Part shown: piece after piece, positions 3,925 through 55,935 of the stretch
Layout of the letters: every line of letters begins with the position of its first letter
Numbering within the stretch: the first letter of the stretch is position 1
Origin: an uncultured Bdellovibrionales bacterium
GTDB lineage: Bacteria > Patescibacteriota > Minisyncoccia > Moranbacterales > DUUL01
Reading direction: 5' to 3'
Length of the DNA stretch: 55,935 bases
Assembly (NCBI GenBank): GCA_964556685.1
Contig: CAZKWX010000005.1
Location: 1 to 55,935 of the forward strand
Program-made: the position numbers and the translations under genes
Notes under the pieces: generated by a model
What the model saw: the letters and a program-made list of their open reading frames with translations, nothing else
Databases searched by the model: none
What the model was told of the DNA's origin: nothing

Positions 3925-4947
3925 TTATTCCCTCTTCGTCATCACCTTTTTTGCTACGTCCCACATTTCGTCTCTTTGTTTTACTTCCTTCAGCCAATAC
4001 CACCACTCTGATCCCCAGAGATAGCTTTCTTCAAAGCCGGTGGCCTGGGCATATTCGATAATCTCTTTGAACTTTTGCGGATTCATTGACTTGTATTGCT
4101 CTTCAACTGAAATGTGTGAAATCCAATCAGGCCCCCAGGGTTCAGCTTGAAGTTCAGAAATGATAATATTTTCTTGAGAGGCAAAGGTTTCAATCATCCA
4201 AGCTTTGATGCGGAAAAATCTGGGTCCGATGGGATATTTGATATAGCCATATGGTTCTTTGTAAATGATTCGATAGAGGGTGGTGCCAAAAATGTCTGCT
4301 CTTTTGGCTGCTTGATACCAAAGGCTCAATTCTCCACTGTCATTGACCATGATCGGCTTTGTGTCATTCAGCTTCTTTACCTGTTCAATCTCTCTGTCAA
4401 CCAATTCGCTATCGATTGCTCCTTCCGGACAGTTGCCAAACGGCAAAAAGGGCTCGTTTTCGACTTGCCAAATGATGATGTTTTCGTTGTGCTTATATCG
4501 ATTTACCAACTCTCCTTCATAGGCTATCAAAGATGCTTCTCTTCGTTTTTTGTCATTCATATAGAAAGCGGGAATGAAACATTCTGGCCAGCGAGGTGCC
4601 TTGATTCCAAAAGCCAAAACAATTTTTGTGTTGCGCTTGGTTGCTTCTTCGATCTGCCAATCCAAATCAGAAAAGTCATATTTCCCTTTTTCTTTTTCAA
4701 TTTCGGTCCAATAGGCGGCAATTCTGATTTTTTCTGGTTGCAATTCATCTAGAATTGTCTCATAGGTTTTTTTCCAATCCAATCCCAAGTCCCTGGCATA
4801 GACACTAGAAAAGGAAACGTGAAATGTCATGTCTTCGTTCTTATCCTTGACGGGCCAATTGAAAGCTAACAACAGCAAACCAACAATCATCAGAATGAAC
4901 AGGATGATTTTAAAAAGGATTTTGAAGATGAATTTAATTAGAGACAT
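3925..4947 (-). CDS. membrane-anchored clan GH-A glycoside hydrolase (beta-galactosidase/GH5/GH42-like)
   Basis: WQVENEP acid/base motif, SELQAEPW nucleophile region, YDFSDLDWQI; likely ATG start at 4947. Confidence 0.8.
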   Translation of the reverse strand: MSLIKFIFKILFKIILFILMIVGLLLLAFNWPVKDKNEDMTFHVSFSSVYARDLGLDWKKTYETILDELQPEKIRIAAYWTEIEKEKGKYDFSDLDWQIEEATKRNTKIVLAFGIKAPRWPECFIPAFYMNDKKRREASLIAYEGELVNRYKHNENIIIWQVENEPFLPFGNCPEGAIDSELVDREIEQVKKLNDTKPIMVNDSGELSLWYQAAKRADIFGTTLYRIIYKEPYGYIKYPIGPRFFRIKAWMIETFASQENIIISELQAEPWGPDWISHISVEEQYKSMNPQKFKEIIEYAQATGFEESYLWGSEWWYWLKEVKQRDEMWDVAKKVMTKRE

Positions 4948-50537: not shown

Positions 50538-50720
50538 TTAAATTATAAATTGTTCAATAAACGAAGAAAAAATCATATCCAACACTCCCAAAAAAATTGC
50601 CACGGCCAAGCTGGCAGCAATCACCACTGCAGTGTAGTTGATTGTTTGCTGCTTGGTGGGCCAATTGACCTTTTTCAATTCCTCATATGATTCTTTGACA
50701 AACGAAATTGCTTTATTCAT
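50538..50720 (-). CDS. secE: preprotein translocase subunit SecE
   Basis: ELKKVNWPT motif plus TM; upstream of nusG. Confidence 0.95.
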   Translation of the reverse strand: MNKAISFVKESYEELKKVNWPTKQQTINYTAVVIAASLAVAIFLGVLDMIFSSFIEQFII

Positions 50721-50913
50721 TTTTTACAGATTACAGATAAAATCACAGATATACGGATGACAGAAAAAGTATTTCAGTATTCTAGCATCATCTGTATATC
50801 TGTACTCATCTGTAATCCATAGAATTTATTAAAAAACAGCCTCGGGGGCGGTTCTTTATTTCTGATTTTATTATACTCAAAAAGTTTTTTCTGTCAACTC
50901 ATCAGTCTCCTTT

Positions 50914-51711
50914 TTAATCTTTTGGATCTCCATGAATCCGGATGTAATTTTCTGAATCAAATATATTCGTCTCAGCCTCAACGTCGATTCTTTCAACTGA
51001 TCCAGAAAATTTCTCAGAAAAGCCGATAGAATAATCTCGATGCTCTCCTGCTCGAACAGTGTTCATCACTTGAGAATTGACTGCCAAGAGATTTCCTTCC
51101 CCGCCTCTGAGGATGACTTTGACATTTATCGTCTCAAAATCTGTGTCGCTTCTATTCACCAGCGTTCCCATCGCTCTTCCAAAACCAGTTTCTCCGCCTG
51201 AGGCTGCCTCAAAACGAGAATTTTTAATTGCTAGGTTCGGCTCACGATAACTCACAAATTTTTTCCAAACAATACCGTCTTGGTCAATGGCAACATCAAT
51301 GCTTGAAAGATCGCTAACAGAATCAACGTTATAGATAACTATACTTTTCGTTTCGGCAGGAAGAATGTAGTCTTCTTTTTCCAATTTCGTTTCCGAATTC
51401 AATGTCACCACAAAATCATACCTTTTTGCTCCGTATAAATCATTGGGATTCTTGATTTTCATGACCAAGTCAAATGTCCCATCGTTGTTTTTGACCCACT
51501 CTTCGGAAACAACTTCCAACTTTTCCAAGGGAATCACTTGCGAACAAGGTGCACAAGGACCTCCACAGTCGACTTGCTCCTCTCCTTGATTCTTGGCTCC
51601 ATCAAAACAAGTCGGATCGGGCTTTGCCATAAAATAGACAACCGTTCCCAGTAAAAAGAAAACGATTAGATAGAAGATGATAATCACAAACCTCTTAACA
51701 CCTCGAGACAT
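50914..51711 (-). CDS. membrane-anchored Cys-rich protein with Ig-like/FxLYD-like domains
   Basis: TM, CFDGAKNQGEEQVDCGGPC motif, beta-rich repeats. Confidence 0.65.
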   Translation of the reverse strand: MSRGVKRFVIIIFYLIVFFLLGTVVYFMAKPDPTCFDGAKNQGEEQVDCGGPCAPCSQVIPLEKLEVVSEEWVKNNDGTFDLVMKIKNPNDLYGAKRYDFVVTLNSETKLEKEDYILPAETKSIVIYNVDSVSDLSSIDVAIDQDGIVWKKFVSYREPNLAIKNSRFEAASGGETGFGRAMGTLVNRSDTDFETINVKVILRGGEGNLLAVNSQVMNTVRAGEHRDYSIGFSEKFSGSVERIDVEAETNIFDSENYIRIHGDPKD

Positions 51712-51823
51712 AATTACTTTTCTTTAATGTGTTCTATGTTTGACAGTATAACACCAAAAAACCCTCAAATCAAACAAAAAACCAACCAGAAAGGTTGGCA
51801 TTTTTGACTTTAAATTCACTATT

Positions 51824-52241
51824 CTTGGCACTGGCCTACTCTCCCCATCGGCGCTGAAAGAGGCTCTTTATCCGCCTCTGGCGGAAACGACTGAGTTCGC
51901 CTCAGCACCATTTCCGTCCATAATCTTTGGCATCGACCTACTCTCACCCGCCCAAATTTTTCGATTTTCTTTTCGTCATTTCTAGTTAAATTTCATTAAC
52001 TGCTTTTTCACGAAAATTTTTATTCCTGTTTTTTAATCGAAAAACTTGGGCGGGCTACCATCGGCGCTGACAGGCTTAACGACTGAGTTCGGGATGGAAT
52101 CAGGTGTGACCCTGTCGCTAAAGACACCAAAGACAATAAAAAGAAATAAAAGGTGCGGGGCAAGGGAAGCCTGTCCGCCCACCTGCCTTCGGCAGGTGTT
52201 GGTGGAGGATCAGGTGTGGCCCTATCGCTAAAAGCACCAAG
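51824..52241 (-). pseudogene. degenerate 5S rRNA split in two halves (51824-51899 and ~52207-52241)
   Basis: CCTACTCTCC, CCATCGGCGCTG, AACGACTGAGTTCG on one side and ATCAGGTGTG..TCGCTAAA..CACCAAG on the other. Confidence 0.65.
51925..52132 (-). rRNA. rrf: 5S rRNA with ~90-nt expansion in helix IV
   Basis: Sense CUUUGGUGUC..CACACCUGAUUCCAUCCCGAACUCAG..GCGCCGAUGGUAG[expansion]GAGAGUAGGUCGAUGCCAAAG. Confidence 0.88.
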
Positions 52242-52499
52242 AATGGTGAATTTAAAGCGTAATATCAGTGCAGAATCAAACTCTGCTAACTGCTAGTCAT
52301 ACGAAGAAGCAATACTAAAGATCATTAGTACTCCTTGGCTGAGCCCCGCGTCTATCGACTTACTAAATTTTACTAGCGCTTTGCTATTGATATTAATAAA
52401 TCGAATAACACGGAGCTGTGCACCCCTTGCGGGGCTTACACCTGGAGCCTATCAACCTGGTCGTCTACCAGGAGATCTAAGCTGCCTTATCTTGAGTTT

Positions 52500-52532
<33 letters not shown>

Positions 52533-52756
52533 GAAACGAACATAGCTACTCGGCGGTGCACTTGGCAGTGACAGCCGATAGACCAGAGGTTCGCTCTTAG
52601 AGGTCCTCTCGTACTATCTAAGAATCCTCTCAAGCAGCGACGCCTACGGCAGATAGAGACCAACCTGTCTCACGACGGTTTGAACCCAGCTCGCGTACCT
52701 CTTTAATTGGCGAACAGCCAAACCCTTGGGAGTTGCTTCGCCCCCAGGATGAGATG

Positions 52757-53623
52757 CATATTACTCCATTATTACTAATGGTATAGACTATATCCTCACC
52801 CCGCTCTTTCACAGAAAGGGCGGGGGCTGGCGTATGATAGAAGTTTAAACTCTGAATATCAGATACCTTCTATCTTATCCCGTCTTATTGGGATTCAGTC
52901 GTTACGGGGTCAAGTTAATCTTGTATTCCATCGAAGGAACAATAAATGGCTTGATCAAAAAACAAAACTTTTTTGCTTCCTTTTGAGGAATGTAAATGTT
53001 CCAATTTTTTGTCTTCCGATGTAATTTTGCAACAATCTTAAAATTATTTTCCAAACACTTTATCAATTTCTGTTGATCTTGATAACTGAAGGAATCAGTT
53101 CCAATTCTCAAGGCATTACAATCATTCCTTTTGTATCCATCATCCATGAACCAAATAGCTAAACTTATTGGTTTAATTAGAATGTTTTCGATCTCCTTTG
53201 GAATTACTTTTTTTCTGTCCTTATAAAACTGAAAATAAAAGTGATTTAAGCATTCCAAAGAAAAAGTCGATAAATGGACCCTTTCATAGAATTTTCCATT
53301 CTTTGAGTGTTTAGCAGAAACAATTCTTGGTTTTTGGGGAGAAATATTTTTGAACTCTTCATAGAGCCATCTGAGGTATTCGGTTTGAGCTAGCCCATGT
53401 TCCACTCTCAAACGAACATTTTTCCCATTTTTTTCTAGACATCCGTCGCCTAGAATCAAACCAATTAAAATTGCTTCCTGTCTTTTTGATAGTTGCATTC
53501 TGAAAAGATTAACCGACTTCCCACGGTATTGCCCTGTAATCTTGGGTTCATTTTACAGGGTTCCACCGTTATTAGCCAGTGTACTGATTCCACCTTGCGG
53601 TGGAATTCGACCCTAAAAATTTG
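52757..53623 (-). mobile_element. group I intron with homing endonuclease (after ~U2511)
   Basis: Exons GGCU|CAUC; P1 with U.G, P7 ACGACUG/UAGUCU, terminal G. Confidence 0.88.
52902..53498 (-). CDS. LAGLIDADG homing endonuclease (two-motif type)
   Basis: LIGLILGDG and LAIWFMDDG motifs; inside the intron. Confidence 0.9.
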   Translation of the reverse strand: MQLSKRQEAILIGLILGDGCLEKNGKNVRLRVEHGLAQTEYLRWLYEEFKNISPQKPRIVSAKHSKNGKFYERVHLSTFSLECLNHFYFQFYKDRKKVIPKEIENILIKPISLAIWFMDDGYKRNDCNALRIGTDSFSYQDQQKLIKCLENNFKIVAKLHRKTKNWNIYIPQKEAKKFCFLIKPFIVPSMEYKINLTP

Positions 53624-53874
53624 AGCCGACATCGAGGTGCCAAACAGCGCCGTCTATGTGAACTATTGGGCGCTATTAGCCTGTTATCCCCGGGGTAACT
53701 TTTATCTGCTGATCTTCCGCGCATCTATATGCCACGGTCGGTTCACTAAATCCTGCTTTCGCAACTGCTCGACATACCCGTCTTGCAGTAAAGCTGGCTT
53801 GTGGTTTTGTCCTATCGCTCCGATTTCCATCCGGAGCTAGCCAACCTTTGTGAGCGCCTCCGTTACATTTTGGG

Positions 53875-54215
53875 CACTTTGTTACTGCTTATTTATTTTT
53901 AAAATAAGCGGTGTGGTCATTTCTGCCACACTCTCTGTGTCGCCACAGAGTTCAGACTATATCTTCACCCGCCAAAATTTCGAAGAAACTTAGGCGGGGC
54001 TTGGCGTCTAGTCGTTGAGGGCCACATTAAAATGTTCCCTGCTGATTGTCCGCACCAATCACTTTTTTACCATATAACATTATATGGTAGTGTTGGATAC
54101 TCGGAGTTTCCAGCATATAAGCCAAGTTTTTTTATTTTTTTTCGCATTGCGACGATCTTCATTGCCATGTTGCCATGACAACTCCCCACAAAAATCACGG
54201 AGGTGATTTTTCTTA
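53875..54215 (-). mobile_element. group I intron without ORF (after ~U2262)
   Basis: Exons GCCU|CCCAAAA; P4 UGCUGG/UCAGCA, P7 ACGACUA/UAGUCU, terminal G. Confidence 0.85.
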
Positions 54216-54575
54216 AGGCGACCGCCCCAGTCAAACTACCCACCAGGCACTGTTCCCGTCCGCGAAAAATTTTTCAAATTAATTTGAAAAATTTTCAGCG
54301 GACAGGGTTAGCATTTAAAAGCATATAGGGTGGTATTCCACTGATGACTCCATTCCAGCCGGAACTGGAACTTCAAAGTCTCCCACCTATGCTCGGCAAT
54401 ATAATCTCAAACGCAATGCCAAGTTGTAGTAAAGCTCCACGGGGTCTTTTCGTCTTGCCGTAGGTAGAGGGCATCTTTACCCCCATTGCAATTTCACCGG
54501 GTCCCTTGTTGAGACAGTTGCCAAGTCGTTACGCCTTTAATGCGGGTCGGTATTTAGCCGACAAGGAATTTCGCT

Positions 54576-54927
54576 AATCGTCTTGCTCGATATATTTTTC
54601 TTTATATCTCACCCACTCTCCGAGTGGCTGCATGTCGCCATGCAGATGGAACTCTATCTTCTCCAATTCATTTGGAGTCTGACGTTTGGTTTCTGAGGAT
54701 TTCCCGTTTGAGCGGGATCTTTCCTGCTGATTGTCCGCACCAATCACTTTTTTACCATATAACATTATATGGTAGTGTTGGATACTCGGAGTTTCCAGCA
54801 TATAGTCAGATTTTTAGGACATTCCGATTTCTCGGAACAAGCAGTTACTTTTCCTTTTATAACTTTAAAACTCGACTTTTCTACAATTGTTCTAGTCCTT
54901 GAAACTGCCTAAAATAAGACAATCTCA
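54576..54927 (-). mobile_element. atypical group I-like intron (after ~U1931)
   Basis: Exons AAGGU|AGCGAAA; P3 UCUGAC/GUCAGA, P4, J8/7 GAAGAUA; non-canonical P7 and terminal U. Confidence 0.8.
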
Positions 54928-55935
54928 ACCTTAGAACAATTATAGTTATTGCTGACGTTCACTGGCGCTTCGGAGCGCGGCTTGCACCTTGCTCGTTAAC
55001 GTTCCAGCACTGGTCAGGCGTCAGCCCCTATACATCCCCTTACGGGTTAGCAGAGACCTGTGTTTTTGATAAACAGTCGCCAGGCATCTTTTGTTGCAGC
55101 CGACGCTCCGCGTCGGTTCGCTGATTCATGCTGATTTCACGCTGATCAATGCTGATAGAAATTCCATCCGCATTAATCTGCGTTTCATCTGCGTTTATCC
55201 GCGTCCCGGTGCGAAGCATCGGCAGACCATATCCCTAAGTTACGGTCGCTGTTTTGCCGAGTTCCTTAACAAGGGTTCTCCCGTTCACCTTGGGCTACTC
55301 GCCCTGTCTACCTGTGTCGGTTTGCGGTACGGATACTGTAAAACAATCTTAGAAGTTTTTCCTGGCACTCTGCTCATCCTTGTTCCCCCGACTCAACGTC
55401 GGGGTTCCAGGAATACCTTGAGCTGATGCTGGCGGATTTACCAATCCAGCACCCTCAGCATTCCCACCAGAATCCAATAACTGGCAAGGACTACTAGAAT
55501 GCGTCACTCCATCGATATATGTTTTACAGTAGGGCAGGAATATTAACCTGCTGTCCATCGACTACCCCCCAGCGCTCGATTCTCGAGCTTAATTTCTAAT
55601 TTACAATTTATAATTTCTAAACAATCTCTAACTTTCTAATTCCTAATTTATAATTGAAGAATTTAGTTATTGAAAATTGATTAAAAATTTAAAATTGCAA
55701 ATTGCAAATTGAAGCTTGCTCGAAGAGCAAGCGCCAGGGACTCGCCTTAGGACCGCCTAACCCTGGGATGACTATCATCGCCCAGGAAACCTTAGACTTT
55801 CGGTGTACGTGAGTCTCACACGTATTGTGGTTACTTATGCCAACATTCTCACTTCCTGCCGCTCCATTCCACCTCACGGTGTAAACTTCACTGCTGACAG
55901 GAACGCTTCTCTACCAACGCTCGCATCTCGCTTCG

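Follow-up and report, generated by a model that had tools for sequence, protein, structure and literature searches.

A 5S rRNA gene nested within a split 5S rRNA gene in a patescibacterial rRNA operon

Can one 5S rRNA gene lie inside another, and if so, which of the two serves the ribosome and how did the inner one come to be there? These questions are raised by a region beside the 23S rRNA gene of a 55,935-nucleotide stretch of DNA (the window). The window corresponds to contig C5 in a genome of 0.99 Mb (G000; 23 contigs, 39.6% G+C, a metagenome-style assembly) whose relatives have genomes of 0.6-1.4 Mb. An earlier note on this DNA had described the halves of an outer 5S gene flanking an inner 5S gene, and every element that it listed proved to be in place. 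We find that the locus is a true gene within a gene. The nested arrangement is real, recurs in other genomes and is apparently unpublished; standard rRNA annotation sees the inner gene only, so that the 5S genes of these bacteria are misdescribed.

Anatomy and setting of the composite locus

The rRNA genes of the window lie on the minus strand, with the composite 5S region 3' of the 23S gene. From the 23S gene onward, the features are as follows.

52270-55935 of the window, minus strand: 23S rRNA gene with inserts
53933-54202 and 54628-54878: group I introns in the 23S gene, at least two (Rfam)
52902-53498: LAGLIDADG ORF in the 23S gene
52237-52257, minus strand: closing stem, 5' arm; overlaps the start of outer helix I and is paired in the MFE fold
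52207-52241, minus strand: outer 5S 5' half, with the 5' strands of helices I, II and III (nhmmer positions 2-35)
52180-52206, minus strand: degenerate outer loop C plus a mini-palindrome hairpin at 52198-52180 (from reading and fold)
52152-52179, minus strand: conserved 27-mer of the insert, placed at 52153-52179; its last 10 nt are the left clamp arm
52161-52152, minus strand: GC clamp, left arm, GGTGCGGGGC
52134-52151, minus strand: stalk, AT-rich left arm, paired in the fold
51925-52133, minus strand: inner complete 5S rRNA gene, about 209 nt including a helix IV insert
51947-52054, minus strand: hairpin element in the inner helix IV tip, 108 nt, with 20-nt arms and a 68-nt AT-rich core
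51910-51924, minus strand: stalk, AT-rich right arm (from the fold)
51899-51909, minus strand: GC clamp, right arm, GCCTCAGCACC, which pairs with 52161-52152 in the fold
51824-51899, minus strand: outer 5S 3' half, starting at CGAAC of loop C (nhmmer positions 41-108)
51871-51885, minus strand: mini-palindrome of 15 nt in the outer 3' half, inserted behind GTT of loop B
51808-51828, minus strand: closing stem, 3' arm; 21 nt, 95% complementary to 52237-52257
51781-51799, minus strand: terminator-like hairpin and T-run, just 3' of the closing stem of the composite
51773-51745: promoter-like site for the next gene
50914-51711: next gene after the 5S region, encoding a membrane-type protein

The earlier note had reported a long closing stem, an imperfect inverted repeat (51899-51909 with 52152-52161), a complete 5S gene in the loop of that repeat, and an outer copy that lacks helix IV and carries extra palindromes, and each of these observations held. 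The closing arms are those listed above (51808-51828 with 52237-52257). Read directly as RNA, the clamp forms nine pairs with one mismatch and one bulge, and the stalk arms make an inverted repeat of 21 nt that is 71% complementary with 51910-51930. The gene in the loop matches RF00001 with 52.7 bits and has paired helices I-III, and the outer copy shows a gap in its profile match and two mini-palindromes that are repeated elsewhere in the genome. A 466-nt RNA fold reached -184.3 kcal/mol (z = -10.3, with 0 of 100 shuffles as stable), and its predicted shape is the nested architecture.

The inner gene is the sole Rfam 5S match in the window and in the whole genome. The match runs from 52131 to 52045 on the minus strand, well above the cut-off of 38 bits, and the model skips helix IV; the 3' end of the gene resumes at 51951-51925, beyond the 108-nt insert. 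With the lineage profile, nhmmer aligned positions 2-83 and 84-107. Helices I, II and III pair at 8/8, 7/7 and 4/4 positions, and loop C reads CCATCCCGAAC. The inner gene has neither the ordinary length nor a short helix IV and loop D; instead, it carries the 108-nt hairpin element at the helix IV tip. The arms of this element (52054-52035 and 51966-51947) recur as identical 20-nt arms in the 16S gene (G000:C10:33313-33420), in the same RNA-sense orientation and around a diverged 68-nt core. Related arms occur at two sites on contig C6 (G000:C6:3856-3928 and 4595-4903), and one longer C6 copy encloses an 84-aa GIY-YIG nuclease ORF (E 1.3e-12). With four sites in the genome, the helix IV element therefore passes as a palindromic repeat family with a nuclease-bearing copy; the loop C clamp, found at just two loci and with 0 ORFs, does not match that pattern. 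Both inserts have the form of rRNA intervening sequences: each is a hairpin that sits at an rRNA helix tip and has complementary ends, formed by the clamp and arms in loop C and by the 20-nt arms in helix IV. This genome is not alone in having 5S inserts of about 100 nt, since the single 5S gene of another genome of the order (G036, locus L034) has a helix IV expansion of about 105 nt; that of another (G037, L033) has one of about 40 nt, and both expansions have complementary ends.

A profile built from the 5S genes of 44 relatives found both outer halves in a 2.8-kb nhmmer search, to which the following E values refer: the 5' half at 52240-52207 (profile positions 2-35, E 2.5e-07) and the 3' half at 51899-51824 (positions 41-108, helix IV absent, E 9e-06). 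Infernal with RF00001, which the earlier note had proposed for both copies, recognised the inner gene with the score given above and left the outer halves unmatched even at E<=10, so that they are seen by the lineage profile only. Outer loop C reads CTCCACC, is interrupted and has lost the consensus, and in the outer 3' half GATGG passes straight into GGAGAGTAGG, without helix IV. The outer strands still pair at 8/8 positions in helix I, 6/7 in helix II and 4/4 in helix III (approximate values, because hmmalign misplaced part of the 3' half), and in G000 the cross-combinations of inner and outer strands pair equally well. The loop B palindrome has exact 17-nt copies at G000:C2:124123 and 124644, and the hairpin beside outer loop C has related CCTGCC/GGCAGG palindromes elsewhere in the genome, which holds 11 CCGCC-N(3-6)-GGCGG hairpins. 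A separate family of hairpin repeats, starting GTCATTCCCGCACC, has at least six copies (G000 C1:70308, C1:120726, C3:112275, C8:18495, C9:23824 and C13:27064); five of them end near GGCATAAACTCCGGCGGGAATC, and the C8 copy does not.

The composite occupies the native position of the 5S gene in the operon, as indicated by the 23S gene upstream and by the similarity of the downstream gene to that of relatives. A Pfam search with the downstream gene (50914-51711) gave no match, and reading of the flanks placed genes that resemble it after the 5S gene of three relatives (G005, G036 and G053) as well. The terminator-like hairpin (51799-51781) probably ends the rRNA transcription unit. A search for sigma-70-like sites within the composite found none, and an Rfam search of 51700-52400 for group I and group II introns (E<=10) gave no intron match. 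Nor does 51808-52257 contain an ORF of at least 100 aa, and hence no gene for a transposase, integrase, nuclease or recombinase. A tRNA-like processing signal was considered and dropped, as 0 tRNAs were predicted in 50653-53679. Within the 23S gene, the Rfam alignment stops at 53571, yet 23S-like sequence runs on to about 52400-52600, which makes a further 23S insert likely.

Could the locus be an assembly chimera that joins variants from different strains? The genome was assembled in metagenome style into 23 contigs, and the records available for checking were Logan contigs and not raw reads. A search for sequencing runs that contain the stretch gave 14, from 5 studies, and none of these is recorded as RNA. 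We aligned Logan contigs from four of four runs, in four studies, to 51600-52500. One record (X5 record 1; X5 may be the source sample) covered this interval whole with 1 difference, and another (X6 record 4) covered 51675-52500 with 0 differences. In the other two runs (X7 records 9 and 11; X9 records 12 and 14), both outer/inner junctions were covered, and the contigs broke only at 51926-51975 and 51990-52054, at the arms of the 108-nt element, which is repeated elsewhere. The direct repeats between inner and outer copies are 32 nt (88% identical; the outer 5' half against the inner copy), 22 nt (82%), 16 nt (94%) and 14 nt (100%); the longest exact repeat, 14 nt, is too short to mislead an assembler. 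The same layout was moreover found in five other genomes. Since the junctions are carried by contigs from four runs in four studies, with 0-1 differences, we conclude that the locus is not an assembly chimera, and we give that explanation next to no credence.

Composites in other genomes

RF00001 matched in 48 of 61 genomes searched (G000 included), and nearly all of the matches were 107-119 nt long. We scanned 48 loci around such matches, from 47 genomes, with the lineage profile (18 of the loci with 200-nt flanks only). The order 5' half, full copy, 3' part was found in three genomes, G005, G028 and G039; two others, G003 and G047, have downstream 5S fragments only. The ordinary 5S gene of G003 is followed, 650-1400 nt downstream, by three partial copies (L008, 2254-2909; profile positions 72-108, 19-108 and 19-56). 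A BLAST search of the composite against 27 family genomes matched ordinary 5S genes in 17 of them and gave no sign of nesting; that of G005 was recognised only by reading of the flanks, not by BLAST.

Together with two genomes outside the order of G000, G061 and its relative G331, this gives five further composites, three of them (G005, G028 and G039) within the order. G005 contains a three-level stack, in which 5' halves ending at positions 35 and 33 precede a full copy, followed by 3' parts that start at 39 and 70. The cleanest case is G028: its outer 5S keeps all helices and is split between CCATTC and CCGTAC, and within the insert a full 5S lies between two AT arms, with CCCGCACC before them and GGCGCGGGG after them. 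G039 follows the same plan with a clamp that is different yet complementary, and with an outer 3' part reduced to positions 84-108. Clamp arms corresponding to the right arm at 51899-51909 occur in G028, G039 and G061. In G061 (L098), the unit of 5' half plus spacer is present twice, exactly; after it come a full copy and, beyond a spacer, a 3' half that starts from CGAAC. The inner and outer 5' halves are identical. The exact tandem duplication of outer 5' half and spacer measures 120 nt (minus strand, L098 at about 1020-780), and a metagenome contig, L147, ends inside this repeat, so that the copy number may be an assembly estimate. RF00001 finds only the innermost copy in all five other composites, and the 23S 3' end lies upstream in 4/4 composites with enough upstream sequence, the L098 locus being too short there.

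The insert itself is conserved over some distance. The 27-mer of the window (52179-52153) has 25 of 27 bases in common with the G061 spacer, and the more decayed array of G331 contains it with one mismatch. When up to three mismatches are allowed, G000 is the only one of 319 genomes of the order to contain it; among 41 genomes around G061, two do. GyrA of G000 and G061 is 62% and 50% identical in two pieces, as against 68-78% among order-mates, which makes G061 more distant from G000 than the order-mates are. The composite appears old or mobile enough to be common to other Patescibacteria.

Searches beyond these genomes yielded mainly single genes. A collection scan for the pattern 'GAGTARG, short gap, CGAAC...' returned 67 loci; the pattern cannot match G000 itself, and the scan therefore gives no rate. 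Most of the loci are single 5S genes with a chance upstream match, and nesting was found only in L117 (which is G005) and L098. A full copy with a 5'-truncated second copy occurs in 8/67 loci (L068, L075, L078, L085, L090, L098, L111 and L131), and L123 and L126 hold only small extra 5S fragments. In seven of the eight, which come from Nocardioides (L068, L075, L090), Bacillus/Ectobacillus (L085, L111, L131) and Sporolactobacillus (L078), the truncated copy follows within about 10 nt and spans profile positions 12-31 to 108; the tandem partial 5S genes of these bacteria are a kind distinct from nesting. A metagenome scan for the spacer motif gave 25 loci, of which 24 were chance matches in GC-rich coding DNA with no 5S nearby and one (L147) duplicates L098.

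Could the nesting be apparent only, produced by three tandem 5S copies, the first now without its 3' part and the third without its 5' part? Not every break lies in loop C, as copy 2 of G331 passes it and reaches position 54 before decay, and by reading of the sequence short stretches of the spacer behind the outer 5' half could pair with that half in the manner of a reduced 3' half. The latter idea was rejected: with nhmmer at E<=100, no 5S remnant was detected in the spacers. In contrast to what tandem decay would leave, the break points are complementary in four cases, with positions 35/41 in G000, 36/40 in G061, 33/39 in level 2 of G005 and 54/63 in copy 2 of G331. Furthermore, the outer halves pair in matched helices that are distinct from those of the inner copy. 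In level 2 of G005, the outer halves pair with each other at 7/8, 7/7 and 4/4 positions of helices I, II and III, and helix II formed with the inner copy has just 5/7 and 4/7. In G028, helices I and II of the outer copy pair at 8/8 and 7/7, as against 6/8 and 5/7 for the inner 5' strand with the outer 3' strand (approximate figures, owing to hmmalign misplacement in the outer 3' half). On the strength of the complementary breaks and the matched outer halves, we accept true nesting and consider tandem decay very unlikely.

The outer copies and the working gene

In every composite, the innermost copy is canonical. The outer copies have suffered losses: helix IV and the loop C consensus in G000, positions 42-83 in G039 and positions 36-69 in level 1 of G005. 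The outer copy of G028 reads CCGTAC where the consensus is CCGAAC, and the loop B palindrome of G000 is present at the same site in the outer copy of G028 and in copy 2 of G331. The outer copies resemble displaced genes that are decaying slowly. All of them retain their closing stems, which would fit a role as a processing stem of the precursor.

The reading that we hold to be probable makes the inner copy the working gene and the outer copy a shell, displaced and in decay; the inner gene would be co-transcribed with the shell and excised at long stems. On this model, an older resident 5S gene, in its native place after the 23S gene, would have been split in loop C by a hairpin-shaped insert composed of the GC clamp and the AT-rich arms, with an entire 5S gene at its tip. 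It is likely that the composite as a whole is co-transcribed with the rRNA operon, given that there is no internal promoter-like site and that a terminator follows the composite. Two long double-stranded stems, an outer one of about 29 bp and the stalk made up of clamp, arms and inner helix I, may then serve as the processing sites that free the inner pre-5S, and the inner copy would be the ribosomal 5S. Its 108-nt insert and its score of just 52.7 bits are a caveat to that assignment. The outer shell would decay slowly, through loss of helix IV and of the loop C consensus and through invasion by small palindromes, with the caveat that its helices I-III still pair in G000. It may be maintained in part by gene conversion with the inner copy, and its ends may be kept as the processing stem of the operon. 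Gene conversion between copies is suggested, on sequence identity, by the identical 5' halves of G061 and by 28/32 matching positions within G000.

An alternative is that both copies work, or that the composite acts as one greatly expanded 5S rRNA, with the outer copy used in ribosomes or as a scaffold for 5S-binding proteins and the insert either kept or excised to leave a fragmented rRNA. The paired outer helices I-III of G000, G028 and level 2 of G005 are consistent with such a function, as is helix I of the outer copy, which has changed on both strands between G000 and G028 with pairing kept. Loops C and B are among the least obstructed sites for 5S expansions according to the available portion of one survey (PMC7812874), and helix IV can be lost in Parcubacteria, as stated in the accessible part of another (PMC9297842). 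Dual function is, however, difficult to reconcile with the large parts missing from the outer copies of G039 and level 1 of G005, with the altered loop C consensus of G000 and G028, and with the lack of an RF00001 match to the outer copy in 6/6 composites. We therefore regard dual function as improbable and retain the inner copy as the probable working gene. If it does work, the cell must cut a 5S out of another 5S-like fold, and the locus offers a natural test case for rRNA processing with few ribosome-biogenesis factors.

Origin of the insert and comparison with known systems

How did the inner gene enter the outer one? The earlier note had suggested that a palindromic element delivered a replacement 5S into the resident gene. 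The anatomy agrees with this suggestion: a hairpin insert with complementary GC-rich ends splits a 5S at the resident position in loop C and holds a complete 5S at its tip. The comparative evidence backs it in part, and delivery by a mobile palindromic element may be the origin; speaking against it, or leaving the matter undecided, are the absence of an enzyme gene from the insert and the finding that the inner and outer copies of G000 are each other's closest relatives. An integrative element with a duplicated target end would bring a recombinase, and none is found here.

Import is favoured by the distribution of the insert, which is patchy yet conserved across orders (the 27-mer in 1/319 genomes of the order, with 25/27 bases in G061). 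It is also favoured by the divergence of copies in two relatives. Inner and outer copies are about 75% identical in both G005 and G028, and the split middle copy of G005 (level 2) matches the 5S type of genus g13 and the family at 80/90 positions, as against 68/89 for its own inner copy. A further clue is a tRNA-Arg(GCG) gene at G000:C3:84147-84293, flanked by an inverted repeat whose left arm with T-run matches the clamp exactly over 14 nt and whose right arm is similar. Directly behind this gene lies a diverged, displaced tRNA 3' half, from the anticodon to CCA; the upstream side shows a promoter-like TTGACC/TAAAAC pair and no 5' half. Among G005, G028, G039, G061 and G331, the clamp motif CCCCGCACNTTT matched in G061 only, both times inside the composite, so that the tRNA association is so far specific to G000. 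GC hairpins of the CCCCGCAC type are common in the genome, and the similarity of the clamps may for that reason be generic in part.

The inner and outer copies of G000 match at 28/32 positions of the 5' half and both read CAGTCGTT in loop B; among 47 relatives, only G058 has TCGTT. The earlier note had also proposed a phylogeny of inner versus outer copies. The alignments, of about 32 and 21 columns, offer too few sites for a tree, and identity matrices took its place; they showed no grouping of inner with inner or outer with outer copies across genomes. Import and an internal duplication with later gene conversion cannot be told apart by comparisons of identity.

The composites may accordingly have arisen with no mobile element at all, through template switching at the tip of a 5S hairpin or serial slippage, followed by vertical inheritance, many losses via direct repeats, and gene conversion. 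The mutual closeness of the G000 copies and their common loop B signature are in line with this alternative, as is an insert that lacks an enzyme gene. Slippage at the locus is documented by the exact 120-nt tandem duplication in G061, and full plus truncated tandem 5S copies occur in unrelated bacteria (8/67 loci). Replication error accounts poorly for a 27-mer that is conserved at 25/27 bases in the distant G061 yet present in 1/319 genomes of the order, for inner and outer copies of only about 75% identity in G005 and G028, with the outer copy of G005 nearer the family type, and for the same clamp beside a tRNA gene. We consider such an origin conceivable but doubtful.

The joint reading of these observations that we put forward, tentatively, is that a mobile hairpin cassette lands in the apical loop of 5S and tRNA genes together with its own working copy of the gene. 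The composite of G000 would then have originated by insertion of a 5S-carrying hairpin cassette. The host would survive the break and come to depend on the incoming copy, and the cassette would spread between orders as a break-and-rescue selfish element. Repeated hits on the innermost intact copy would build Russian-doll stacks such as that of G005. If a cassette with a replacement gene does exist, it would represent a new route for the exchange of an essential RNA gene between lineages, and the value of such RNA genes as vertical markers would be undermined.

There are integrated elements that push aside the end of the tRNA gene they enter and supply a copy of that end themselves. As at such elements, a working gene here is followed by a fragment displaced from the apical loop, and the tRNA-Arg locus of G000 resembles them. 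The 5S composite differs in that both the 5' and the 3' displaced halves remain, that the insert of about 300 nt has no integrase, and that a whole gene is supplied. Palindromic repeats of the REP, RPE and MITE-like types are small hairpins in many copies, and the genome of G000 likewise has small GC-rich hairpins in several copies, inserted into genes that include the outer 5S. To our knowledge, REP, RPE and MITE elements carry no structured-RNA gene as cargo; the 5S insert, unlike them, does.

Our literature search found no 5S nested in a 5S and no nested tRNA genes in these bacteria, and the supplements of the Tsurumaki papers may list individual 5S genes. In the parts of Stepanov & Fox 2021 available to us (PMC7812874), loop C and the helix III bulge are named as the least obstructed insertion sites, and 5S sequences with an internal duplication were discarded as invalid. 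The composites resemble the 5S expansions of that study in keeping the core fold around inserts in loops B and C and in helix IV, and in the 5S remnants beside working genes; the inserts described in those parts are plain structured modules, and no 5S inside a 5S is among them (PMC7812874). Helix IV and loop D are often lost in Parcubacteria, according to the accessible text of Tsurumaki et al. 2022 (PMC9297842), and the accessible text of Tsurumaki et al. 2024 reports no insert of at least 100 bp in 645 CPR 5S genes (PMC11270868). The rRNA inserts of the latter study, as far as its available text describes them, lie at the tips or bases of stem-loops, many being short and without an ORF and some carrying GIY-YIG genes (PMC11270868). 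The 108-nt element, present both in helix IV of the 5S gene and in the 16S gene, fits this class, as does the loop C insert in its hairpin shape. What sets the loop C insert apart from the insert classes in that text is its cargo, since none of them carries a second copy of the gene that it interrupts (PMC11270868).
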